NCBI GenBank assembly: GCA_964458565.1
Contig: CAYWJO010000064.1
Span: forward strand, 1-15,403
Direction of reading: 5' to 3'
Source: an uncultured archaeon
GTDB taxonomy: Archaea; Asgardarchaeota; Thorarchaeia; Thorarchaeales; Thorarchaeaceae
Length of the DNA: 15,403 nt
Numbering within the stretch: position 1 is the first letter of the stretch; each line of letters starts with the position of its first letter. Position numbers and translations under genes: made by a program. Positions 1-15,403 of the stretch are shown here, in pieces. The notes under the pieces were generated by a model, which was not told the origin of the DNA, ran no database searches, and was given only the letters and a program-made list of their open reading frames with translations.

Positions 1-72
1 TCGCTTCACGGACTCGTCTAAGCGAACACCGTGTAGAAGGCTGGCGCCCTATCCGGGCTAGGCAACGGGCCC
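1..72 (-). tRNA. tRNA-Arg(UCU) with 32-nt BHB intron at 37/38; cut by the window edge (possibly the intact gene)
   Basis: Reverse complement of 72..34 = GGGCCCG TT GCCT AGCCCGGATA GGGC G CCAGC CT TCT A (acceptor 5' strand, D-arm with GG, anticodon stem, U33, anticodon TCT at 37..35, A37). Intron 33..2 = CACGGTGTTCGCTTAGACGAGTCCGTGAAGCG forms a BHB: CTTC/GAAG central helix, 3-nt bulges TA|C and CG|A, outer helix ACGG/CCGT. Confidence 0.9.
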
Positions 73-102
73 TTAGTGCTTCGCATTGCGTTTTTGGTCA
101 TG

Positions 103-126
103 TTTGACTTAAAGAGTCTTCGATAA
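103..126 (-). promoter_or_regulatory. Putative tRNA promoter (BRE + TATA TTTAAG), copy 1
   Basis: 24-mer TTTGACTTAAAGAGTCTTCGATAA is identical in all four repeats; on the minus strand it reads CGAAGACTC-TTTAAG about 35 nt upstream of tRNA G1. Confidence 0.7.
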
Positions 127-2819: not shown

Positions 2820-4718
2820 TTGAGGATTAAATGTGCTATCTTAACCATCGCACTTCTACTTGGAGTACTACTCACAGTTTCAGATTGCACTGGATATCAT
2901 TTTGAGTTTCTTGAATCCGATCAATGTACTTATAGTATGATGGCTTATCAAATCCATCCCAAGTATACTAATGTTTCTGATAGCCTTTTGTACTCAACCC
3001 TCATTGGAGGAAACAGGGACGAATCTATAAGTTCAGTCTGTGTTGTACAAGGTGATGAAGTCTATATTGCAGGACCCACAGGCTCTCTTGATTTTCCCAG
3101 AAATATAGATGAATACGGATATCCGAATGGTAGCTATATGCCTTCGCAATCGGATTGTTTTATTCTAAAGATGAATCATTCAGGGCTTGTCTTCGCTGCA
3201 TTTGTTGGTGGTACTGGAAATGACTATCCATATGATATAGTCTTAGATGGAAAAGGAAACATCTATGTGACTGGTTCTACATGGTCAAGTAATTTTCCAG
3301 CAACAACATCCTTTGGTGACTGGCAAGTTGGGATTGACTGTTTTGTCTTCAAGCTGAGTCCGAATGGTGATAAACTCCTCTATTCAACGGTCATCAGGGG
3401 TAACAATGAAGAGCGTGCTATGGCCATTGATGTTGATGATGCGGGATGTGCCTACATCACAGGTTATACATTCTCACGTGACTTTCCTATGGCAGATGCT
3501 TTAGATGACTCGTACGGCGGAAATAGACTGACTGATTGCTTCATCACAAAGCTGAACCCTACTGGTGATGAGATTCTCTACTCGACATATTTTGGGGGTT
3601 ATGGAGGGGAACAGGGGAACAGTATCTTAGTTAACGAGCAGGGTTATATCTACATAGGGGGATTCACTACCTTTGATATTCCCTTGGTAAATGCGTTCGA
3701 CGACACATATGGAGGTCATCGGGATGGGTTCGTTGCAAAATTGACTCCATCAGGTGATGACGTGGTATTCAGCACCTATCTGGGAGGGTCAGGTCGAGAT
3801 TATGTACAAGACATCGATGTTGATGTAGAAGGGAATGTATATGCTACAGGATATACTGACTCGATTGATTTTCCCTTACATAATGCCTACGACTCCGAAA
3901 TTGATAATGATCAGTGTTTTGTCCTAGGGCTCAACAGTACGGGAAACGGACTTCTGTATAGCACCTATCTGGGTGGTTCAAGTGAAGACATAGGTCAGTC
4001 TATCCGGGTAGATGCGGGTGGTTATACCTATGTGGCAGGAGAGACCAGATCATCAGATTTTCCAACCTTATTGGCGTATGATAACACATCCAATGGAGGT
4101 GTGGACTCTTTTGTTTCTAGGTTTTCTCCTGAAGGTGACAAGCTCATGTACTCTACGTTTGTTGGAGGGTCTGGTAATGATTGGACCCGCGGACTTGCTA
4201 TTGACGAGTATGGAACCGCATATGTGTGTGGGTTCACAATATCTTCAGACTTCCCTCTAGTCAATCCACTTGATTCCGTTCTAAATGGAAGTGATGACGG
4301 TTTCTTGTACAAACTCGCAGACTTTAGTGACAGTGACAATGACACTCTGAGTGAATATCAGGAATCACTCTATGGCACCAATCGTTTTTCAGCTGACACT
4401 GATAATGACACTCTCGGTGATGCAGAAGAGATCTTTCTATATGGTACTTCACCATTGCTTGCTGATAGCGATAATGACACCTACGATGATGCGTGGGAGA
4501 TAAAATACGGATTCAACCCGTTGGACCCACTGGAACCAATGAGGACAATACAGTCACAGCAACTCATTCTGATGAGTGCTGCTGTCATGGTAGTATCCAT
4601 TCTTATTACTGCTGTACTCATACTTTGGCACCGCGCAAGAAGAGCGAGGATGAAAAAGGAAGAACTGGAGTCTGAGGAGAGAGAGGCAATACATGGTCTG
4701 GTAGGTGATGAGAACTAA
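2820..4718 (+). CDS. Membrane-anchored SBBP (beta-propeller) repeat protein with DxDxD Ca-binding-like repeats
   Basis: TTG start; N-terminal hydrophobic signal; about 7 repeats of YSTYLGGSGxD...I.VD..G..YV.G.T.S.DFP; DSDNDTL-type repeats; C-terminal TM followed by a basic then acidic tail. Confidence 0.85.
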   Translation: MRIKCAILTIALLLGVLLTVSDCTGYHFEFLESDQCTYSMMAYQIHPKYTNVSDSLLYSTLIGGNRDESISSVCVVQGDEVYIAGPTGSLDFPRNIDEYGYPNGSYMPSQSDCFILKMNHSGLVFAAFVGGTGNDYPYDIVLDGKGNIYVTGSTWSSNFPATTSFGDWQVGIDCFVFKLSPNGDKLLYSTVIRGNNEERAMAIDVDDAGCAYITGYTFSRDFPMADALDDSYGGNRLTDCFITKLNPTGDEILYSTYFGGYGGEQGNSILVNEQGYIYIGGFTTFDIPLVNAFDDTYGGHRDGFVAKLTPSGDDVVFSTYLGGSGRDYVQDIDVDVEGNVYATGYTDSIDFPLHNAYDSEIDNDQCFVLGLNSTGNGLLYSTYLGGSSEDIGQSIRVDAGGYTYVAGETRSSDFPTLLAYDNTSNGGVDSFVSRFSPEGDKLMYSTFVGGSGNDWTRGLAIDEYGTAYVCGFTISSDFPLVNPLDSVLNGSDDGFLYKLADFSDSDNDTLSEYQESLYGTNRFSADTDNDTLGDAEEIFLYGTSPLLADSDNDTYDDAWEIKYGFNPLDPLEPMRTIQSQQLILMSAAVMVVSILITAVLILWHRARRARMKKEELESEEREAIHGLVGDEN

Positions 4719-4776
4719 GGTATTCAGCTCACCGCTACTAATGTCCGAGGCGTGCAGACTAAAAGTGTGGCACGCA

Positions 4777-4860
4777 CGAACTCCAACTCGCTTCACGGAT
4801 TCGTCTAAACGAACTCCAACTTAGAAGGCTGGCGCCCTATCCGGGCTAGGCAACGGGCCC
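4777..4860 (-). pseudogene. tRNA-Arg(UCU) 5' fragment, chimeric (intronless junction + partial intron + duplicated 3'-exon piece)
   Basis: 5' exon 4860..4822 identical to copy 1; then AGTTGGAGTTCG (4821..4810), 21 nt of intron 3' part (4809..4789), AGTTGGAGTTCG again (4788..4777); no T-loop or acceptor 3' strand follows. Confidence 0.85.
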
Positions 4861-4889
4861 TTGATGTATCGTATAGCGTTTTGCTCTTA

Positions 4890-4913
4890 TTTGACTTAAA
4901 GAGTCTTCGATAA
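4890..4913 (-). promoter_or_regulatory. Putative tRNA promoter, copy 2
   Basis: Same invariant 24-mer as 103-126. Confidence 0.7.
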
Positions 4914-5157
4914 AACAGGCATGACTCACTATTTGGGTTAGCAAACTCAAATCGTTGTGTAGGATGCAGGCTAAAAGTGTGGCTCGTTCAGAATCCAGAG
5001 TTGTCAGGAGTATATGACCGAGAACGCGAGTGTTTGAGTAGAGTTGTCATCATCTGTGGACTATTTTCTTTCTTCTTTGTATATTATTTGCATACTTTTC
5101 CAATCTTGCCCATCAAAACACGCATGCCGTCTTTTACTTTAATAATAAAAAAAACAG

Positions 5158-5173
5158 TTGAACTTATATTCAA
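5158..5173 (+). promoter_or_regulatory. Putative TATA box inside a palindrome, TTGAA-CTTATA-TTCAA
   Basis: Identical to 371-386, at the same distance from the start codon. Confidence 0.55.
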
Positions 5174-5206
5174 GGGATATTATATTATCTTGGAGTGTAG
5201 TGAGGA

Positions 5207-7282
5207 ATGAGACGAAACTCTAGGAAAATATGTGTGCTACTACTTACTGTAGTAGTCTTTGTGTCAATGAATGTCATGTCGGTATCAGCCAGCTCTATAA
5301 GACCTGGTGAAAATGGATTATCTTCTCCTCAGGTTGATGAATCCATTGATTGGGAAATGATTCCCGACCCTCGTGTGGAGGCTGAAGTCTTAGCTCAGGG
5401 TGAAAAGACGCCTCAGAATGTGCCAGACGCTCCGCGATTGTTCTGGGATGAAGACCTTGGTCGCTGTTATATCAGTACAAACATCCCATGGGATATTTTA
5501 CAGGCTGCAGGTATCAGTCTGGAGGGCAGTTCTATTGAAGAGCGAATTCCCAATGCACCAAGATTTGAGGATGTCTATGATAGGATTCAGAGGATACAAT
5601 CGCTTTCAAATGCGAAATATCCGCGTACATTGTTATATGACCCTGTAGTTGTGATCTGGGTCACTGTACCTGCTATATGGAGCACTGGTGAAGATATCGA
5701 GATCAAGTTCAAGATGTTCAATGAGGGGTACCAGACTGCAACCGCATCCTGTCATTTCTATGGCTATGACAATAGTACTGGGTCTGATGAAGTGGAGTTC
5801 AGTGTAAGTGGGTCCGTCAATATACCCGGTGAATCTTATGGATACAAGACACTGACTGTGGAGATTCCTGAGGAATCAGTGGGGATTAAGCGTGGAATTG
5901 CCACAGCAACAGAAGATGCATCCTACAGTGAGGATATGGGATATGTCTTTGTGCAGAAATTTGGTGAGTTGGATGCGAGTGACCTTCCTGAGGATGATAG
6001 GATGTCATATACTTCAGGTAACGATAATTATTACTGGGAGGGTCTATCAGATATAGATGGATTCAATGTTCAGGTAAATTATTCAAGATATCATCCGTAT
6101 GCATGGAATATCACATGGCTTGCTGGTTGCCTGATAGATACTGAAAATGTTTCTACAATTGATAATGCTGCAGAGTACTTGACAAATGCGACAAATCAAA
6201 AGATGACATATGATTCTAAAGATGACGGGATAATAGACTATTCCCATAGTTCACACTGGTCTGACTTCAAGATTATGAGTGAGAACTTTACTGGTGTGTG
6301 TGATGAGTTTGCCTGTCTTGAAGTATCATTCCTTCGAAGTCTGGGTATCCCTTGTAGACAGATCGGTGGTTCAAGACAGGGCGGGGGTCATAGCTGGCTT
6401 GAATATTGGGGTCAGTTGAACGGTGATTGGTCGTGGATTCATGCAGATCCTACATGGAACAAATATAATCTACCAGCTGGTATCAAGAATCTGAACTATA
6501 CGAACATCAATCTCTATTCATACTGGAATGACAGTTCATATTCAGGTGGCACCATAGATGGTAATTCCACCAATAGAAGACTTGTAAAAAATGATGCAAA
6601 ATACAGTGTTTCATATGATGGACCAAATGACTTTGGTTATGCCTTCATAGATATTTGCGAGGACACACTCTCATGGACATACGATGGAAGTTGGCCAAAC
6701 CCAATATTCTCCATTGGAACTGGAACCCTATATACATCTAATGGGTATCTCAGAGCAGTACCAACTAATCAGGACGGTACAGGACCATTCTATTACCGAG
6801 AACTTGACAATGCTCTTGATATCTATGATTTCAGGAAATTAGAAATTGAAGTTTCATTCAATAATCCCTCTGACTCGTACAAGGGGTGTTTCGCTGTTGC
6901 ACTCTATGACTACTATAAGGAATTCATCTGCTATGTTATTCTCTATGAGTGGAGGGGTGCTCAAGTTGATATGGACTTCTATACAAGATGGTATCTTGAT
7001 AATGGCACAACCAGCAACTATAACGAGTTTGACTATCAGGGAGCCTCATGGCGAGGGATCATCGAGATATACCGAAACGAGACAAGTGGACCCTATGGTA
7101 ACTATTCTGGAGGAATATGGTCATATATCGAGGGATTTGGATATCAGCAGCTCTTCTCAGAATCGGATATTCAGGGTGACCAACGAGAGATCTGTTATAT
7201 TGGCATCCAGTGGAGAAGAGGTTCGGATACATTTCTGAATTACTATCTTCATGATGTTAGGGTATGGGAGTTCACCAGATGA
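5207..7282 (+). CDS. Secreted transglutaminase-like (Cys-His-Asp) domain protein
   Basis: 691 aa; signal peptide; GVCDEFA...LRSLGIPCR...GHSWLE...WIHADPTW (Cys codon 6299, Asp codon 6446) matches the transglutaminase-like core pattern. Confidence 0.85.
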   Translation: MRRNSRKICVLLLTVVVFVSMNVMSVSASSIRPGENGLSSPQVDESIDWEMIPDPRVEAEVLAQGEKTPQNVPDAPRLFWDEDLGRCYISTNIPWDILQAAGISLEGSSIEERIPNAPRFEDVYDRIQRIQSLSNAKYPRTLLYDPVVVIWVTVPAIWSTGEDIEIKFKMFNEGYQTATASCHFYGYDNSTGSDEVEFSVSGSVNIPGESYGYKTLTVEIPEESVGIKRGIATATEDASYSEDMGYVFVQKFGELDASDLPEDDRMSYTSGNDNYYWEGLSDIDGFNVQVNYSRYHPYAWNITWLAGCLIDTENVSTIDNAAEYLTNATNQKMTYDSKDDGIIDYSHSSHWSDFKIMSENFTGVCDEFACLEVSFLRSLGIPCRQIGGSRQGGGHSWLEYWGQLNGDWSWIHADPTWNKYNLPAGIKNLNYTNINLYSYWNDSSYSGGTIDGNSTNRRLVKNDAKYSVSYDGPNDFGYAFIDICEDTLSWTYDGSWPNPIFSIGTGTLYTSNGYLRAVPTNQDGTGPFYYRELDNALDIYDFRKLEIEVSFNNPSDSYKGCFAVALYDYYKEFICYVILYEWRGAQVDMDFYTRWYLDNGTTSNYNEFDYQGASWRGIIEIYRNETSGPYGNYSGGIWSYIEGFGYQQLFSESDIQGDQREICYIGIQWRRGSDTFLNYYLHDVRVWEFTR

Positions 7283-7362
7283 TTTCACAAAGACGTAGAT
7301 TCCTCATTATTGGAGGAATATCTCACATCCACTTGTGATAAATTCTAAATACAAGTCATGAA

Positions 7363-10341
7363 ATGATTACGGGGAGCGATAGAATGGTAATCAATATGTC
7401 AAGAATGAATGAGCGATTGTGGGGATTCTCACTGTTCTTCATATTGGTTCTTCTTCCACATGGCGTATTTCCTAATGTAAATTCTAACGTTAGTCAGGCA
7501 GATGGAGCATCCCAAAATGATGAGTCATTCCAACCATCCATTACACAGGCACTCGACAATGCAGCTCGCTCATTCTTTGTAGAGAACGTGGGGCAAATAA
7601 ACTCCTCCTCAGTGTTATTTTATGGCTATATAGATACATTCTATGTCAGCCTTGGTAATGATGGAATCCAGCTGTACGAATTATCTACAGGCAGGACTCT
7701 CAAGTTAGAGTTTGTTAACTCTCAGGGTCTCGTACTTCACGCATTGGACGCTATGGATGTGAAGTACAATTTCTTTCTTGGTTCAAGGGGAGAATATATT
7801 GATGTAATGTGTTATTCTCATATTTCGTACAAGAATGTCTGGCCGCATATCAATCTCAATATTCGATTGATTGAAAATAGAGTCGAATACGAGTACATTG
7901 TTCGACCGGGAGGAAATGTATCAGACATACAAATTAAGATTATTGAACAAGCGTCTATACCATTCGAAAAGAACGAGATAGAGATAGGTTTGAAAGAACG
8001 CCAAATCGTTGAGGGTTATACTATAGGCAATCAGAAGAATCAACAGATACAGATAGATTTTGTACAGGAGGATATTGATATCTATAGTCTTCAAGTGTAT
8101 GATTATGATTGCTCTTCCACACTTATCATTGATTGTCTGATATATTCTACATATATTGGTGGTTCTGAGATTGATATTGGGAGAGATATTGCAGTCGATA
8201 AGGAGGGAAATATCTATATTACTGGTCGAACAAGTTCGACGAACTTTCCAATCCAAAATGCATATGATTCCACCTATAATGCTGGAACTGCATCTATTAC
8301 GTATGACTGTTTCATATCGAAGATTGATTCTTCGGGAGCGATAGTCTATTCTACATATGTGGGTGGTTTATTTTGGGAGGAAGGAAATGGAATCGCCGTC
8401 GATGACGAGGGAATTGCATATGTCACAGGTGGAACAAGGTCCATTGACTTTCCAACTGTGAATGGGTATGATGAGAGTTTCGGTGGTGGTTCCTATGACT
8501 GTTTCATCCTAATCCTCAATGCAACGGGAAATGGATTAGTTTATTCGACATATTTAGGTGGGGCGTTTTCAGACATGGGCCAGGATATTATAATCGATGG
8601 CGTATCTAATATTTTCATTTCTGGCAGAACTGCATCAAGTTCATTTCCTACTGTCAATGCATATGATGACACCTGGAATGATGGCTATGACTGTTTTGTA
8701 TCGAAGATGAACTCTACAGGTACGGGTCTAATATATTCAACCTATGTGGGTGGAACATTTTCATACACTCCCCCCTATGATGATCGTGATGATGTTGCAG
8801 TAGCTTTGGCAGTTGACACTTTTGGGAATGCCTATGTTTCAGGCTACACGAACTCGTTGTATTTTCCCACTGTCAATGCGTATGATGACACTCTGGGCTC
8901 GTGGAATACCGAGGATTGTTTTGTCTTCAAGCTGAATGCCACCGGCAATGGTCTCATATATTCCACCTACATTGGTGGTACGGGACAGGACCAAGCCACA
9001 GATATTACCATCGATGCTGAGGGATGCGCCTACATCACAGGCCTCACGCAGTCTACAGACTTTCCACTGGTTGGTGCACTTGATTCGACTCTCAATGGCA
9101 CATCGGACTCATTTCTCGTCAAACTCTCTCCAGAAGGAGATCAGCTCCTCTATTCCACCCTTCTGGGTGGAAATGACACCGACTCGGGGCAGTCATTGAT
9201 GTGTGATGCCCTGAACAACATCTATCTTGGCGGTACCACCACTTCGCCAGACTTTCCTGTGGTCAATGGTGTTGAGTATGATGGAAACGGGAGTGCAGAC
9301 TGTTTTGTACTCAAGCTGAACATCACCGCAAACAGCATCATGTACTCAACATGTATGGGAGGTACTATGGATGACTCCCTGTTATCCCTCGTTATCGATT
9401 CTTACGGGACAGTCTATGCCACTGGTAGTACTTATTCCGACGATTTTCCCATGGTTGACCCCTATGATGACACTCAAAACGGAGAGAGTGATGTCTTTGT
9501 GTTCCTGCTTCCAGATTTTGGAGACTCGGATTCAGATGGCATACCGGACTATAATGAGTCTCTCTATGGCACTGACAGGTTCTTAGCTGACTCAGATTTT
9601 GATGGGCTCGGAGACTTCGATGAGATTTTCACGTATCTCACCAATCCGCTCTCGAATGACAGTGACTCTGATGCTCTTGATGACTTTTCAGAGGTCATGG
9701 TCTACCTCACAAATCCATTGAATAACGATTCTGACTCGGACTTCATGAGTGATGGCTGGGAGGTCCTGTACACACTAGACCCACTAGACCCGACTGATGC
9801 TGGCCTGGATTTAGATAATGACACACTCTTGAACCTCGGTGAGTATCAGCATGGTACGCTTCCTGACAACTGGGACACTGACTCTGATTTGATGAGCGAT
9901 GGATGGGAGGTACAATATGGACTGAATCCCCTGGACCCGACTGATGCCACAGGTGATCTTGATGCAGACTTCCTCACGAACTTGCAAGAATATGAGCTTG
10001 GTACAAATCCACGCTCAAGCGATAGTGATCTTGATGGGATTCCAGACAACTGGGAGGTCTCCATGGGATTCGACCCTCTCGATCCCACTGTCCCCCTCAT
10101 AGAATATCTCCTGTACAACCTTCACATCACAATCCTTGTGAGCGTTTTTATTGTAGGTGTTTGTGTTGGGCTCATCTACCGTCTTCGACCCCGTCTGGAG
10201 CGTCGAAAGATGAGGAAGGAACAGGAAGAAGAACACAAGGAGATCGAGGAGGGTATCAGGGATCTGGGAGGGCATGATACAAGAGATACACAGAATGGCA
10301 TAGATGACAGGGAGAACGGTGGAGATACCAAAAAACCCTAG
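7363..10341 (+). CDS. Large membrane-anchored SBBP beta-propeller repeat protein with many DxDxD repeats
   Basis: 992 aa (true start may be a later Met); N-terminal FVENVGQ-type domain typical of SBBP proteins; about 7 SBBP repeats; multiple DSDxDGxxDxxE...GxxP repeats; C-terminal TM and charged tail. Confidence 0.85.
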   Translation: MITGSDRMVINMSRMNERLWGFSLFFILVLLPHGVFPNVNSNVSQADGASQNDESFQPSITQALDNAARSFFVENVGQINSSSVLFYGYIDTFYVSLGNDGIQLYELSTGRTLKLEFVNSQGLVLHALDAMDVKYNFFLGSRGEYIDVMCYSHISYKNVWPHINLNIRLIENRVEYEYIVRPGGNVSDIQIKIIEQASIPFEKNEIEIGLKERQIVEGYTIGNQKNQQIQIDFVQEDIDIYSLQVYDYDCSSTLIIDCLIYSTYIGGSEIDIGRDIAVDKEGNIYITGRTSSTNFPIQNAYDSTYNAGTASITYDCFISKIDSSGAIVYSTYVGGLFWEEGNGIAVDDEGIAYVTGGTRSIDFPTVNGYDESFGGGSYDCFILILNATGNGLVYSTYLGGAFSDMGQDIIIDGVSNIFISGRTASSSFPTVNAYDDTWNDGYDCFVSKMNSTGTGLIYSTYVGGTFSYTPPYDDRDDVAVALAVDTFGNAYVSGYTNSLYFPTVNAYDDTLGSWNTEDCFVFKLNATGNGLIYSTYIGGTGQDQATDITIDAEGCAYITGLTQSTDFPLVGALDSTLNGTSDSFLVKLSPEGDQLLYSTLLGGNDTDSGQSLMCDALNNIYLGGTTTSPDFPVVNGVEYDGNGSADCFVLKLNITANSIMYSTCMGGTMDDSLLSLVIDSYGTVYATGSTYSDDFPMVDPYDDTQNGESDVFVFLLPDFGDSDSDGIPDYNESLYGTDRFLADSDFDGLGDFDEIFTYLTNPLSNDSDSDALDDFSEVMVYLTNPLNNDSDSDFMSDGWEVLYTLDPLDPTDAGLDLDNDTLLNLGEYQHGTLPDNWDTDSDLMSDGWEVQYGLNPLDPTDATGDLDADFLTNLQEYELGTNPRSSDSDLDGIPDNWEVSMGFDPLDPTVPLIEYLLYNLHITILVSVFIVGVCVGLIYRLRPRLERRKMRKEQEEEHKEIEEGIRDLGGHDTRDTQNGIDDRENGGDTKKP

Positions 10342-10396
10342 TTATAGTGGGATAGTGAGCTGTTATGTATAGAGTAGATTAAAAGTATGGTCCACA

Positions 10397-10447
10397 CGAA
10401 CTCCAACTTAGAAGGCTGGCGCCCTATCCGGGCTAGGCAACGGGCCC
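10397..10447 (-). pseudogene. tRNA-Arg(UCU) 5' fragment, intronless
   Basis: GGGCCCGTTGCCTAGCCCGGATAGGGCGCCAGCCTTCTA|AGTTGGAGTTCG: exact exon-exon junction, anticodon stem CCAGC/GTTGG; ends at the start of the T-stem. Confidence 0.85.
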
Positions 10448-10477
10448 ATAGTGCTTCGCATTGCGTTTTTGGTCGCA

Positions 10478-10501
10478 TTTGACTTAAAGAGTCTTCGATA
10501 A
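10478..10501 (-). promoter_or_regulatory. Putative tRNA promoter, copy 3
   Basis: Same invariant 24-mer. Confidence 0.7.
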
Positions 10502-10763
10502 AACAAATCCCATCCTTAACTTGGATATGGCTTGAGGTGAAGTAAGGAGAAGCCTCAGAACTACATTATATACCCTAATACTAAATCAAGAGGGATTCGA
10601 ACTCTTAAATTGGTCATGAGTGTATTACCTTATGGAAATACAATCCAGCGACTGGATGATAAATCTCATCAGAGGTGTTGCTATTATCTAAAGAGGCAAT
10701 GGTACATTATTTAAAAACAAAGTTTATTAAATAAAATTTGAGGAAATAGAATGGGGATTTGTT

Positions 10764-11588
10764 TTGGAAATGAGAAAGTGGATTAGGTATAGACTTAACA
10801 TACTAAATCTAGAACTTGATGTGTCATGGCCATCCTTTGCAATATCTTCCCTAATCGCATTACTTCTCATCACATATTCTATACTATTATTGAATACCTT
10901 CTCAAGTATTCGTACAGGATTTGGACCTGAAGGTCCCAGTAATATACCAAGAGTTGAATTCTTTGTCAATACACTAAATAGAGATACTATCAATGCTATG
11001 GGTATATCGACTTCCATCATGAATTATCTCATTATTTCAATCATCCCTCTTGTTATGTCAATCACATTTGCCAGTTCTTTTGAAAACGGTAACTTGCGAA
11101 ATTTATTATCAATGCCCATTGCAAGGAAGTCAGTATTCTTCATAAAATTCATCATTCTGTTTTCTGTAATCACCATTCCTTCTGTATTCGGTTTATTAAT
11201 TGGTACTTTTTGGTTTTTGCCAAATTCCGCTTCTCTTAAGATTCATGTATTGCTGAGTATTTCTCTGATATTGGTTATTTTTTTCAATACATCTATTTCT
11301 ATGTTAGTCGCTGTTCAAACAAAAAGTCTGATGAAGAGTACATTTCTGAGTCTTTCGATTTGTTATATCTTATTCTTATCCTCAAGCGCGAATCTAATTC
11401 CAGGACTGATGCTTGGCGTAGTAAATCCAATTCATGCAACCAATATTTACCTGGGAATTTTGCCTACAGTACAGGAATTAACATTAGGTCTTAATTTGTT
11501 ACTTCTTTCATTGGAGGGTTGTCTTGTGATATCTCTTCTGTTGTTGACTGTTTCCGTTATCAGTTTCGATAAGATTGAGATTGAATGA
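10764..11588 (+). CDS. ABC-2 type transporter permease
   Basis: About 6 TM segments; SFENGNLRNLLSMPIARKSVFFIKF motif typical of ABC-2 permeases; likely ATG start at 10770. Confidence 0.8.
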   Translation: MEMRKWIRYRLNILNLELDVSWPSFAISSLIALLLITYSILLLNTFSSIRTGFGPEGPSNIPRVEFFVNTLNRDTINAMGISTSIMNYLIISIIPLVMSITFASSFENGNLRNLLSMPIARKSVFFIKFIILFSVITIPSVFGLLIGTFWFLPNSASLKIHVLLSISLILVIFFNTSISMLVAVQTKSLMKSTFLSLSICYILFLSSSANLIPGLMLGVVNPIHATNIYLGILPTVQELTLGLNLLLLSLEGCLVISLLLLTVSVISFDKIEIE

Positions 11589-11614
11589 GGTGAGAAATAC
11601 TGCGTGCTCTCAAT

Positions 11615-12202
11615 TTGATATTTAGTCTGGGTGTGTCCTTTCTGATTATTTCTATTCTCTATGGTAGTACAGCAATATCTGGAAAGCTGCTTTATCAGGG
11701 AGAATATAGTGGTCACTTTGTAGCTGTGACTGAAGGTGTTCATATCCATGCTTGGGGGCAGGATAATAGAAATTTTACATTATATGTTTTGGATTTTGAT
11801 AATGGGTATAAAGCACTCAATGAGAGTTCACTCGAAAATGTTTCGTATGTGTGCATCTATGAGAATGTGGCTTATATAGAAATCAATGTTTTAGTACCTT
11901 CACCAGGTTGGTATGTGATTCTCGTCACACCATCAAATCCTGATGATTCAGTTATAAGATATGATATCATCATTAGTAGAAATGTCCCTCACCTTGGTCC
12001 ATTCTTTCTAGGTTTATTTCTCGTTCTTGGTTGTATCTTATTCAAAGGAAAAAAAGCTATTTCTGAACGAAATTTGTCCTTAGGGATGCCTCATGTTTTT
12101 GGAAATCAAAAGAAGTCTAAACCTGAGCAGCCAAAGTTGAATCTTATTCTCACCATATCTTATCCGGGTAGAAAAAAGTGTATAGGTGATATCTATGTGT
12201 AA
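11615..12202 (+). CDS. Hypothetical membrane protein (2 TM flanking an extracellular domain); paralog of 13910-14431
   Basis: Hydrophobic segments at the N-terminus and near the C-terminus; NRNFTLYVLDFDNGYKALNESSLENVS resembles NRSFTLYLLDYETGIKTLSEQSLKNVS; start uncertain. Confidence 0.7.
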   Translation: MIFSLGVSFLIISILYGSTAISGKLLYQGEYSGHFVAVTEGVHIHAWGQDNRNFTLYVLDFDNGYKALNESSLENVSYVCIYENVAYIEINVLVPSPGWYVILVTPSNPDDSVIRYDIIISRNVPHLGPFFLGLFLVLGCILFKGKKAISERNLSLGMPHVFGNQKKSKPEQPKLNLILTISYPGRKKCIGDIYV

Positions 12203-13121
12203 TGAAATAATGGTGTCCACAAAAGATCTAGTGAAACGTTTCAATAATATCACAGCTTTGGATAAATTGTCTCTGGAGGTTCCTTCTGGTATATTTGGCT
12301 TAATTGGACCTAATGGGGCAGGAAAGACAACACTCTTTCGTATTCTGATTGGTCTCATCTCTCCAGATGCAGGGACAGCTTATGTATGTGGACAAAATAT
12401 TGACGCACATCTATTAGAAATCAGACAACTAATAGGTGTACTTCATGAGCGTCCAGTATATCCAAAATCTCTTTCCGCAAAGCACTATTTGCAACACGTA
12501 GCAAATCTTTATGGATCCTCAAGTTCTCCGGATGAATATCTTGCATTAGTGGGTTTATCAGAATCAGTAGATAGAAAGATAGGATCTTATTCTGCAGGAA
12601 TGATTCAACGCTTAGGACTTGCTCAGGCACTTATTGGCAAACCAAAACTTGTTCTCCTTGATGAACCAACCTCAAATTTGGATGTTATAGGAAGAGAAGC
12701 CATCTTGAATTTAGTTGTTGACCTTCATCAGAAGTATAAAACATCCTTTCTAATAGCATCGCACATCCTAAGTGATTTGGAAAAAGTATGCACATCTATT
12801 GCCTTTATAAAAAAGGGGAAGGTTATCAAACAGGGAGATATCTTAGATATTGTTTGGAATCAGATGCCAAATGAATTCATCATTGTATTGTCAGATCCAA
12901 CAACATTACAGCAACATATCAAGAATGAGGATGGTATTATTGATACACATATCGCTGGTAGTAGATCATTACTAGTTGAATTAGATGAAGGGTATGAAGT
13001 GCAAGACCTTGAAGATATTGTTTCATTGATTTCAAGTCGTGAAAATATAAAAGTCTATTCAATTGAGAAGCAAAGCTCTCTAGAAGGTACTTTTCGAAGG
13101 GTGATAGAAAATGACTACTAA
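12186..13121 (+). CDS. ABC transporter ATP-binding protein (ABC-2/multidrug-type exporter)
   Basis: Walker A GPNGAGKT, signature YSAGM, Walker B LVLLDEP, H-loop ASH; likely ATG start at 12195 after SD GGTGA. Confidence 0.95.
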   Translation: MISMCNEIMVSTKDLVKRFNNITALDKLSLEVPSGIFGLIGPNGAGKTTLFRILIGLISPDAGTAYVCGQNIDAHLLEIRQLIGVLHERPVYPKSLSAKHYLQHVANLYGSSSSPDEYLALVGLSESVDRKIGSYSAGMIQRLGLAQALIGKPKLVLLDEPTSNLDVIGREAILNLVVDLHQKYKTSFLIASHILSDLEKVCTSIAFIKKGKVIKQGDILDIVWNQMPNEFIIVLSDPTTLQQHIKNEDGIIDTHIAGSRSLLVELDEGYEVQDLEDIVSLISSRENIKVYSIEKQSSLEGTFRRVIENDY

Positions 13122-13929
13122 GCTTCAACGCATGAAATCTCTGGTTAAATTTGAATTAGACGTTTCATTCAAATTTCCTCTACTTGAAATGTTATTTATT
13201 TTCTTTATTGTGATTACTACTGTTGGAGTATACGGTCAATCTCGCACACCTGCATTGTTTATTTTTCCTGGATATGATGTTTCCGAATCTGATGTGGAAT
13301 GGGTTATACAAATCATTGAAGAGATAGATATTCTTCGAGTGTCTGCGCCATTAAATATTATAACACTAATCGTATATTGTATCACGCCGCTTTTAATGTC
13401 ATTTCAAATTGCATATAATATTGAGGTTAATCTATTTAAAAGATATATTTCCTATCCAATCGGACGAAGAACACTAATAGTTTTCAGATTCATAGTTATT
13501 TGGTTTCTCTTTTGCGCTTCAACAACTATAGGGATAATAACTCCTCTCTTTTTCATGGGTGATTTAATCAACCTCGGCGTTATTATTGTCTTGCTCTCCA
13601 CATTTTATTCTACAAGTTTCTTTGTGGTTTCAGCTTCTATTTTAATTGCTGTTGCAACTAGAAAATTTTCATATTCTGTCCTTGGTGGATTGGGTTTGTC
13701 TTCTGTTCTATTAATCGTGAGCTATTTTTCTAGCCAATCATATCTCATTCGAGGAATATGCAATCCAATTTTTCTAGCTTTGGGATTTTTCACAGGTGTA
13801 CCTTTTATTGGAGGCTTTTTTGGAGATATTTTAGTAACAGATGTATTATATAGTATTTTCTTTAATCTCGCATTGGGAATCTGCGTATTCATAATCTCTT
13901 TACTAATAGTTGAAAGGATGGATGTTTAG
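13111..13929 (+). CDS. ABC-2 type transporter permease, paralog of 10764-11588
   Basis: Multi-TM; shares ELDVS, I.PL.MS, P-I-x-R, IAV and NPI motifs with the first permease; overlaps the ATPase stop. Confidence 0.8.
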   Translation: MTTKLQRMKSLVKFELDVSFKFPLLEMLFIFFIVITTVGVYGQSRTPALFIFPGYDVSESDVEWVIQIIEEIDILRVSAPLNIITLIVYCITPLLMSFQIAYNIEVNLFKRYISYPIGRRTLIVFRFIVIWFLFCASTTIGIITPLFFMGDLINLGVIIVLLSTFYSTSFFVVSASILIAVATRKFSYSVLGGLGLSSVLLIVSYFSSQSYLIRGICNPIFLALGFFTGVPFIGGFFGDILVTDVLYSIFFNLALGICVFIISLLIVERMDV

Positions 13930-14431
13930 AATGAATCAAATGAGAACCCAGAAATTCCTCATCATATTTGGAATTACTCTGATTGCACTATCTTATTCAG
14001 CAGTTGTGATTGATTCTTCAAAATCCTTATACATTCAAATTGATGAAGTTGGAGTTTATGAGGGCTTCTTTTTTGAATGTACTAGTATAGAACACATCAA
14101 AGTAACTGAGATAATGAATAGGAGCTTTACACTTTATCTACTTGACTATGAAACTGGAATAAAAACGCTATCTGAGCAGTCACTCAAGAATGTGAGTGTT
14201 CTAGAGTATCATATTGATATAATATCATATGAAGGTGATATTAGCGGTTTAGAAAACCGTTGGCTATCAATCCTGTTAACATTAGGCAATTCAACAGAAG
14301 AGATCCTATGTTATCTAACGATCACAACGAAAGGTCCAGAAATAGGATTGTTTGTTTCTGGTCTTCTATTATCTTCTATTGGACTGGTATGGATAACATA
14401 TGATTACTTTAACAATATAAAAATATATTAG
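13910..14431 (+). CDS. Hypothetical membrane protein (2 TM); paralog of 11615-12202
   Basis: Shared FTLY.LD...G.K.L.E.SL.NVS motif; likely ATG start at 13931 or 13940. Confidence 0.7.
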   Translation: MKGWMFRMNQMRTQKFLIIFGITLIALSYSAVVIDSSKSLYIQIDEVGVYEGFFFECTSIEHIKVTEIMNRSFTLYLLDYETGIKTLSEQSLKNVSVLEYHIDIISYEGDISGLENRWLSILLTLGNSTEEILCYLTITTKGPEIGLFVSGLLLSSIGLVWITYDYFNNIKIY

Positions 14432-14502
14432 TAATACTTTTAAATAATTGATGATATAACCAATTGTACAATATCCTGAATATTGTATAATGAGGTATTA
14501 TA

Positions 14503-15144
14503 ATGTGGTTAAGGAGACTTAAACTCATTTTAGTTATTCTTCTAGCTTTTGGAATGATAATACCAAATGTGTCAGCTTACACATTTACACAAGATGACGA
14601 CTCTGACTATTCTGTTGCGAATGGAGTTTATTCAATCTGGGCATTTGCTGTACGAAGCTGCAATTATGATACGGGTTTAATTGAGGTCATGGGTGCGTGG
14701 GCGAGTGCCAGTTTGCATTATGCCAAGCTGTATATTGGAATGGCTTTCACGGCACCAATATCTGGAAGAGTTCATTGCTCTGCAAAATGGACATTGAATT
14801 ATAAAATTATGGCTGGATTGAATGAGGGTGGTTATGCCAGATTATACATTCGTTACTATCTGCTATCCATTACTCAAAATGAGCTTGAATTTAAGAAGAA
14901 CATATACAAAGATACTGTTACATATGAATCTGGAGGTTATGAAACATCATCGGGCATTATCACTGAAGATGGTAGTAGCAGTGTTTATTGGGATTATCCA
15001 TTGTCAGTAAATACAACTTACTATGCAGCAGTAATGATCTACATAAAATTGTACTATGGTGGCTATGCATTCAGTCAAACAGGTACAATAATTTCCCCTA
15101 CCTATGTTTCTCTTGATGTAAGCGAAATAAATGTCTGGTCCTGA
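14503..15144 (+). CDS. Small secreted hypothetical protein
   Basis: 213 aa; signal peptide ending NVSA; SD-like GAGGT upstream; Tyr/beta-rich mature part. Confidence 0.7.
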   Translation: MWLRRLKLILVILLAFGMIIPNVSAYTFTQDDDSDYSVANGVYSIWAFAVRSCNYDTGLIEVMGAWASASLHYAKLYIGMAFTAPISGRVHCSAKWTLNYKIMAGLNEGGYARLYIRYYLLSITQNELEFKKNIYKDTVTYESGGYETSSGIITEDGSSSVYWDYPLSVNTTYYAAVMIYIKLYYGGYAFSQTGTIISPTYVSLDVSEINVWS

Positions 15145-15165
15145 AGAATAAATATTGACAACAAA

Positions 15166-15203
15166 GAAAGGCTGAGAAAACTCAACCTTTCCTATCTTTT
15201 TTT
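15166..15203 (+). terminator. Hairpin plus T-tract, putative terminator
   Basis: GAAAGG-C-TGAG-AAAA-CTCA-A-CCTTTC followed by T7 (15197-15203), just after the last gene. Confidence 0.55.
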
Positions 15204-15245
15204 AAGTTGTTAATTATTATCTCTCTTACTATGAATGATTTCAAT

Positions 15246-15328
15246 CGAACTCCAACTCGCTTCACGGATTCACCTAAGCGAACACCGTGTAGAAGACTGG
15301 TGCCCTATCCGAGCTAGGCAACGGGCCC
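15246..15328 (-). pseudogene. tRNA-Arg(UCU) 5' fragment with 32-nt BHB intron
   Basis: 5' exon 15328..15290 (3 substitutions vs copy 1), intron 15289..15258 with intact BHB, AGTTGGAGTTCG 15257..15246, then unrelated AT-rich sequence. Confidence 0.85.
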
Positions 15329-15358
15329 TTAGTGCTTCGCATTGCGTGTTTGGTCGTG

Positions 15359-15382
15359 TTTGACTTAAAGAGTCTTCGATAA
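15359..15382 (-). promoter_or_regulatory. Putative tRNA promoter, copy 4
   Basis: Same invariant 24-mer. Confidence 0.7.
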
Positions 15383-15403
15383 AACAATCGATTGGATTTT
15401 TGG

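Follow-up and report, generated by a model that had tools for sequence, protein, structure and literature searches.

In a Thorarchaeota genome we find four tandem copies of a partial tRNA-Arg(TCT) gene, one of which genuinely combines two versions of the same block, one without and one with an intron, joined out of register at the five bases GTTCG. The most plausible reading of this hybrid (copy 2) is that an intron-free block exchanged sequence with an intron-bearing one. By what route archaeal tRNA genes acquire and lose their introns is still debated, as is the question of whether introns shield these genes from integrating elements. The array described here places intron-bearing, intron-free and hybrid attachment blocks together, beside the one tRNA-Arg(TCT) gene that was found in this genome. 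The hybrid records one off-register recombination; the junction gives neither the date of that event nor the enzyme behind it.

Results

Four partial tRNA-Arg(TCT) blocks separate three cassettes

The window, by which we mean the whole stretch of 15,403 nucleotides that was analysed, is the entire contig C64 of a metagenome bin of 3.73 Mb in 93 contigs (93% complete, ~5% contamination), and at each end it shares an exact 55-nt overlap with one partner contig. Joining C32, C64 and C87 through these 55-nt overlaps gives the order housekeeping flank, copy 4, cassette C, copy 3, cassette B, copy 2, cassette A, and copy 1 with the remaining tRNA-Arg(TCT). The features of the window are:

1–126, minus strand: copy 1; promoter, 5' exon, 32-nt intron starting CACGGTGTTCG, and position 38; cut by the contig end and continued in C87
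127–4776, plus strand: cassette A; a 765-aa protein with no Pfam match (420–2717) and an SBBP propeller protein (2820–4718)
4777–4913, minus strand: copy 2; promoter, 5' exon, AGTTGGAGTTCG, the last 21 intron nt, and AGTTGGAGTTCG again
4914–10396, plus strand: cassette B; a transglutaminase-like protein (5207–7282) and a DUF7948/SBBP propeller protein (7363–10341); no recombinase
10397–10501, minus strand: copy 3; promoter, 5' exon, then directly the 12-mer; intron-free; upstream boundary of cassette B
10502–15245, plus strand: cassette C; six genes, including ABC-transporter parts and unknowns; no recombinase
15246–15382, minus strand: copy 4; promoter, 5' exon with three substitutions, 32-nt intron starting CACGGTGTTCG, and the 12-mer; adjoins the housekeeping flank on C32

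The four blocks run in the same direction on the minus strand, and each consists of about 55 nt of upstream sequence, in which a TATA-like CTTTAAG is found, the 39-nt 5' exon of tRNA-Arg(TCT), and AGTTGGAGTTCG. This 12-mer occurs four times on the minus strand of the window (4777–4788, 4810–4821, 10397–10408 and 15246–15257), against 0.04 occurrences expected from shuffled sequence, in which four were never seen. In the promoter blocks, the distal 24–26 nt are identical in all four copies. With four same-direction copies in register and a rebuilt target gene, the array has the form of att-type repeats.

Upstream of copy 4, contig C32 carries a histone-deacetylase-family gene and genes for ribosomal proteins L10, L1 and L11, Spt5/NusG and FtsZ, and on C87, downstream of copy 1, the rest of the tRNA is followed by AIR-synthase-like and radical-SAM genes. 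An independent metagenome contig, 99.8–99.9% identical, covers cassette A, copy 1, the complete tRNA and the C87 genes. A contig of a sister species, whose flanking genes are about 72% identical, has the same flanks and the promoter motif with a single tRNA and without the array, so the ~15-kb array is a lineage-specific insertion. Both breaks of the window contig fall inside block copies (1–55 in copy 1 and 15349–15403 in copy 4), with exact 55-nt overlaps to single partners. Breaks of this kind usually signal a branch in the assembly graph, and further alleles of the array locus may therefore occur in the sampled population.

The intact tRNA-Arg(TCT) gene (C87:3790–3930, minus strand) has one intron at 37/38 and another, about 30 nt long, in the T-loop; its CCA is encoded. 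We recovered this live tRNA by joining contigs and removing introns; minus both introns it is called tRNA-Arg(tct) by ARAGORN, and no other tct gene was found in the source genome. ARAGORN and Rfam called no tRNA within the window, since the four copies there are all fragments and the live gene is interrupted by two introns. In the sister species, the T-loop intron is related and the first intron is different. Of 14 tRNA-Arg(TCT) genes examined in the family, 11 have a 37/38 intron, of unrelated sequence, and the other 3 are without one; some of the family's tRNA-Arg(TCT) genes end in AGTTGGAGTTCG. As the family has intron-free as well as intron-bearing genes of this type, both kinds of partner for an exchange exist in nature.

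The copy 1 intron (window 2–33) resembles, over its first ~22 nt, the 5' strand of its own gene's T-arm together with the start of the T-loop intron. The local alignment score of 20 was reached by 34 of 5000 shuffles for copy 1 and by 398 of 5000 for the copy 4 intron, and the likeness of the 37/38 intron to the T-arm may reflect a common origin of the two introns or chance.

Searches for an allele lacking cassette B and for other carriers of the block comprised a metagenome scan with the 22-nt promoter motif, viral contigs, and two scans of genome contigs, and none was found. The metagenome scan returned three contigs, namely the same population (copy 1 side), the array-less sister species, and an unrelated match; the viral contigs gave no match; the first genome-contig scan was empty, and the second gave only chance matches in bacteria. 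A comparable array was also absent from the 86 family genomes searched, in which tRNA-Arg genes were found. The leader and trailer of the cassettes are essentially private to the source genome.

Copy 2 joins two versions of the block at GTTCG

An earlier note on this DNA had described copy 2 as carrying AGTTGGAGTTCG where the intron should start with CACGGTGTTCG, followed by the remaining intron and a second AGTTGGAGTTCG. Alignment of the copies confirms this arrangement, at the following positions:

4861–4913, minus strand: promoter block of copy 2; distal 24–26 nt invariant, proximal 28 nt diverged
4822–4860, minus strand: tRNA-Arg(TCT) 5' exon, 39 nt, positions 1–37; identical to copies 1 and 3
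4810–4821, minus strand: first AGTTGGAGTTCG; occupies the place of CACGGTGTTCG in the intron-bearing copies 1 and 4
4789–4809, minus strand: last 21 nt of the 37/38 intron; keeps the inner hairpin and the 3' half of the bulge-helix-bulge (GAAG, CG/A bulge)
4777–4788, minus strand: second, distal AGTTGGAGTTCG; tRNA positions 38–48 plus G; abuts the end of cassette A

The alignment of all copies equally bears out that both alternative segments end in GTTCG, and that cassette B is bordered by the intron-free form on both sides, by copy 3 upstream and by the start of copy 2 downstream. The note had also taken the 12-mer for a piece of the 3' exon, which is right for 11 of its 12 nt and wrong for the final G, since the live gene has A after AGTTGGAGTTC; a G after AGTTGGAGTTC is position 49 in the tRNA-Arg(TCT) genes of five relatives.

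An in-register comparison of AGTTGGAGTTCG with CACGGTGTTCG gives 7 identities over 11 positions, among them the final five (GTTCG). The replaced segment in copy 2 is identical to the 12-mer throughout (12/12). Immediately before GTTCG, copy 2 shares the A of the 12-mer and not the T of the intron, which places the switch 3' of this A, within GTTCG (4814–4810). The intron remnant, aligned over its 21 nt, shows two differences from copy 1 and three from copy 4; it is therefore a third variant, copied from neither of them.

The first base after GTTCG, at 4809, is T in copy 2 and C in copies 1 and 4, and the same T follows the 12-mer at cassettes A and B. We considered this T as cassette-derived, which would shift the junction by one base, and rejected the idea: within the intron hairpin this T has an A as its partner, and a T also stands in a similar context in the sister species. 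The hairpin pair at this site is T-A in copy 2 and C-G in copy 4, and in copy 1 a C stands opposite A. On these comparisons, the T more likely belongs to the intron lineage than to the cassette end.

The copy 2 block shows a mosaic of conservation, in which a diverged stretch of 28 nt lies between a perfect distal promoter and a perfect 5' exon. These 28 nt, next to the tRNA start in the copy 2 promoter (4861–4913), are about one third diverged, as against 3 of 28 in the sister species, and this divergence suggests that the left part of copy 2 may be of foreign origin.

For the introns, we took a bulge-helix-bulge to be two 3-nt bulges with a 4-bp helix between them and flanking helices, at the splice sites. 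The native introns of copies 1 and 4 fit this structure as CCAGC-CUUC-(UA/C)-ACGG ... CCGU-GAAG-(CG/A)-GUUGG. When imposed, the native structure has an energy of -9.4 kcal/mol, and the minimum-free-energy and near-optimal folds of copies 1 and 4 retain the inner and outer helices. The 33-nt insert of the hybrid has a predicted fold, 0.2 kcal/mol above the optimum, that keeps the central helix and the 3' bulge and has a 5' bulge of about 5 nt.

The junction is unlikely to be an assembly artefact

Several features of the assembly could make one suspect that the hybrid is present in no cell and was made during assembly or library construction: the contig starts and stops inside copies of one repeat, the source is a metagenome bin with about 5% contamination, and the longest common run, at 52 nt, falls just under 55. 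That run, which is shared with copy 3, is the longest exact match of 4740–4940 anywhere else in the assembly, and no 55-mer of this region is found elsewhere in it. As the contigs overlap by 55 nt, every 55-mer that spans the junction must come from reads. The junction is also flanked, within one k-mer, by private bases on either side, namely the diverged promoter stretch and the third intron variant, and the adjacent join at copy 1 is backed by the independent contig. Graph misassembly at k=55 is thus unlikely, which leaves chimeric reads as the sole way to obtain a false junction; overall, we regard an artefact of assembly or library as highly improbable.

Cassette contents, 23S rRNA tails and the search for a recombinase

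Contig C1 of the same genome ends in positions 2875–2987 of the archaeal 23S rRNA model (its last 113 positions), and a 16-nt motif at the ends of cassettes A and B consists of the final 7 nt of 23S rRNA followed by trailer sequence. At the end of cassette A, window 4718–4777 reproduces the 23S tail and the start of the trailer with 98% identity; at the starts of the two cassettes, 177–284 and 4965–5089 have 80–85% identity to the 23S trailer, from the 16-nt motif onward; and 10374–10396 is among the sites of the motif or the 23S tail at cassette ends. More copies of the 23S tail and trailer lie along the last 17 kb of C1 (C1:238000–255159). Cassettes A and B thus carry boundaries made of the tRNA block and the 23S tail. 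The 16-nt motif, examined as a candidate integrase arm site, was set aside given its identity with the last 7 nt of 23S rRNA and the trailer. GTGCG and GTGTG, which follow the 12-mer and might be remnants of a donor T-stem, were dropped as ambiguous, both being present within the 23S trailer copies as well.

Cassette C has no 23S-tail copies. Its GC content is 32–37%, against 39–48% in cassettes A and B, and by composition it is probably of different origin, despite having the same block limits. A weak C/D-box snoRNA-like match at window 15105–15182 (SNORD72, 28.8 bits, E 0.97, under the family threshold) is probably chance.

A Pfam search of all cassette and flank genes found no integrase or recombinase in cassettes A, B or C or in the flanks, so that no integrase gene adjoins the array. 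Genome-wide, PF00589 (tyrosine recombinase) has one match, on contig C53, beside a geranylgeranyl-reductase-like gene, and PF16795 (archaeal integrase family) and PF00239 (serine recombinase) have no match, absences that a MAG 93% complete leaves unproven.

A paralogue of the cassette B gene pair, 64–71% identical, is found at the start of contig C7 (1–5600), between 56-nt direct repeats (71–126 and 5501–5556). Beside it, at the 55-nt overlap with the end of contig C60, lies a truncated tRNA-like piece, and by its layout this locus may be another cassette site.

Discussion

How the hybrid may have formed

In the explanation that we favour, the left part of copy 2 (promoter, 5' exon and positions 38–49) would come from an intron-free block, and the right part (the last 21 intron nt and positions 38–49) from an intron-bearing one. 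The two versions of the block share about 94 nt of good homology across the promoter and 5' exon, followed by the 7/11 match that ends in GTTCG, and a recombination or repair tract would have begun in the long homology and extended to the last matching bases. Such a tract could reflect homologous recombination that had its anchor on one side and was resolved on the other at microhomology, or else gene conversion with an intron-free neighbour (copy 3, for example) as the donor. In either case, the likely agent would be the general recombination machinery of the host and not a site-specific integrase, and we infer, with modest confidence, that copy 2 is an out-of-register block hybrid made by that machinery. 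Against this stand the outer block limits, which are precise and identical in three cassettes (of which C is unrelated in content) and look site-specific, and the sequence GG(A/T)GTTCG, which with an 8/9 match could be a secondary core for a recombinase acting in trans or missing from the 93%-complete MAG; moreover, the hybrid is a single instance in one MAG.

The earlier note proposed instead that a cassette with an intron-free att site entered an intron-bearing internal fragment, with exchange or conversion between A37 and GTTCG; spelled out as a model, a circular cassette B would have been inserted by an integrase, with the hybrid as the crossover (overlap) region. Block limits are indeed precise in every cassette, pTN3-like archaeal integrases have been reported to act on the 5' half of tRNA genes (PMC8371274), and an exchange at the intron sequence GGTGTTCG, acting as a secondary site for GGAGTTCG, gives copy 2 as the downstream product. 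If a single reciprocal exchange is followed through at GTTCG, its downstream product is exactly copy 2; however, the matching upstream product, predicted as 5' exon, CACGGTGTTCG and B, is missing, and copy 3, which stands there, is intron-free. The two sites do not switch at one position, as a pair of recombinant att sites would, since copy 2 switches at GTTCG and copy 3 is intron-free throughout. What stands of the proposal is thus an exchange of intron-free with intron-bearing sequence within GTTCG, and what falls is the single reciprocal event: with the upstream product absent, the circular-element model needs a second switch point or conversion, and a later entry of C that repaired the missing product would contradict copy 4. 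In addition, a heterology of 7 nt against 6 nt lies between A37 and GTTCG. Such heterology normally blocks exchange by tyrosine recombinases, and lambda-type integrases tolerate it poorly. The term "strand-exchange region" used in the note presumes a site-specific recombinase, and there is none in the cassettes or flanks, nor a dedicated integrase in the MAG, whose sole tyrosine recombinase is on another contig; an entry of A after B at the live tRNA would also make an internal target unnecessary. On balance, we consider the integrase model unlikely.

Two further routes would do without an exchange between blocks. Intron-bearing copies have two GTTCG 33 nt apart, and replication slippage from one to the other could have duplicated a 33-nt unit, after which a precise loss of the first unit (the intron proper) would leave a product identical to copy 2; this takes two rare events where one is enough, the tandem-duplication intermediate is not seen in the genome, and we hold the route to be very improbable. 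Alternatively, the hybrid could be the older form, created by an insertion with duplication of 12 nt of exon, from which the present intron arose as the first repeat diverged. A 21-nt insert between perfect 12-nt direct repeats does resemble an insertion with target duplication, and the intron start matches the 12-mer at 7 of 11 positions. Yet this would put four substitutions and an indel into 12 nt against 2–3 changes in the adjacent 21 nt, the present intron forms a perfect bulge-helix-bulge where the hybrid's is merely relaxed, and 37/38 introns are widespread in the family with unrelated sequences, all of which makes a proto-intron extremely improbable. Finally, GTTCG could be the exchange point of an unrecognised Thorarchaeota system that moves integrase-less cassettes between the ends of stable-RNA genes (the tRNA-Arg promoter-plus-5' block here, the 23S tail elsewhere in the genome), and the hybrid its footprint at a secondary site in the tRNA intron. 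We rate this as a long shot; if true, cassette traffic would switch the intron of an essential tRNA on and off.

Three histories of the array fit equally well, and each needs one unusual event. The cassettes may have entered at the live gene in the order C, B, A, by exchange at the 3' edge of the block. Copy 4 would then be the original 5' part, which fits its three 5'-exon substitutions, and copy 3 would be the block of C, copy 2 that of B and copy 1 that of A. The hybrid would already have been in B on arrival, and the hybrid insert would once have served the live gene, which is possible given its predicted fold with a widened 5' bulge. Another history would have B enter with two switch points, one in the upstream long homology and one at GTTCG, as expected of a linear donor fragment with a homology anchor on one side and a microhomology join on the other. 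Or gene conversion from an intron-free neighbour (e.g., copy 3) could have crossed the 5' exon and ended with the final bases that still match. Common to all three histories is the recombination of an intron-free block with an intron-bearing one, out of register, at GTTCG; they differ in when and where. Only the history with two switch points requires B to have entered an internal fragment, so insertion into such a fragment, which the note had taken to be implied, does not follow, the other histories fitting equally well. Neither does the hybrid mark the entry of B into the array: nothing dates it, and an inherited B block or conversion by copy 3 would account for it equally.

If the cassettes came successively at the live gene, its intron state changed with each arrival, and the intron would then not fully block exchange and would divert it to the nearest matching bases. 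One junction in one metagenome bin does not by itself establish a mechanism, and we see the whole array, with its link to the cassettes that carry 23S tails, as more interesting than the junction alone.

Comparison with known systems

Like integrons, the locus is an ordered array of promoterless-looking cassettes split by a recurring site. It differs from them in lacking IntI, attI and folded attC, in that the recurring site is part of a tRNA gene, and in the cassettes themselves, which are ~5 kb long, multi-gene and equipped with their own upstream regions.

Phage lambda provides the familiar case of integration at secondary att sites, and homology-facilitated illegitimate recombination was reportedly described by de Vries and Wackernagel in 2002. 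The likeness to these processes lies in a homology anchor on one side, a join over a few bases, and an out-of-register hybrid; they have been demonstrated experimentally in bacteria, whereas here the process would be deduced from one junction in an uncultured archaeon.

In tandem accretion of the CIME type at tRNA genes, elements retain att sites and lack the integrase. The array is similar in that same-direction att copies separate self-contained, recombinase-less blocks at one tRNA gene. However, what repeats here is the promoter together with the gene's 5' part and not its 3' end, the array is wholly without an integrase, and two of the cassettes also bear copies of the 23S rRNA tail and trailer.

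[quoted passage not shown] The 104-bp minimum is close to the length of the intron-free block, ~105 nt. In the pTN3-like system, though, the integrase gene itself contains the site and is split when the element integrates, whereas here neither an integrase gene nor halves of one flank the blocks, the cassettes being occupied by other genes, and PF16795 has no match.

The closest precedent is the tRNA-Thr(GGU) locus of Caldiarchaeum subterraneum (Sugahara et al. 2012, PMC3293823), in which a displaced 5' piece of the tRNA gene is followed by an insert and a reconstituted tRNA. There an intron is present in one partner site and absent from the other, so that recombination alters whether the live gene carries it; the authors appeal to site-specific recombination followed by homologous recombination, and propose that such recombination moves introns. 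The Thorarchaeota locus likewise has displaced 5' fragments, a rebuilt gene and partner sites that differ by an intron. In contrast to Caldiarchaeum, where a putative recombinase gene lies in the insert beside the tRNA, the array has none; it has three inserts in tandem and not one; and its intron is at the canonical 37/38 and not at 24/25. An out-of-register hybrid inside the intron is not described for the Caldiarchaeum locus (PMC3293823), nor is one described in PMC8371274. By analogy, then, the Thorarchaeota locus can be regarded as a further example of the Caldiarchaeum type, integrase-less, with three cassettes, and in an Asgard archaeon, and it offers a concrete, testable Asgard case of the Caldiarchaeum model.
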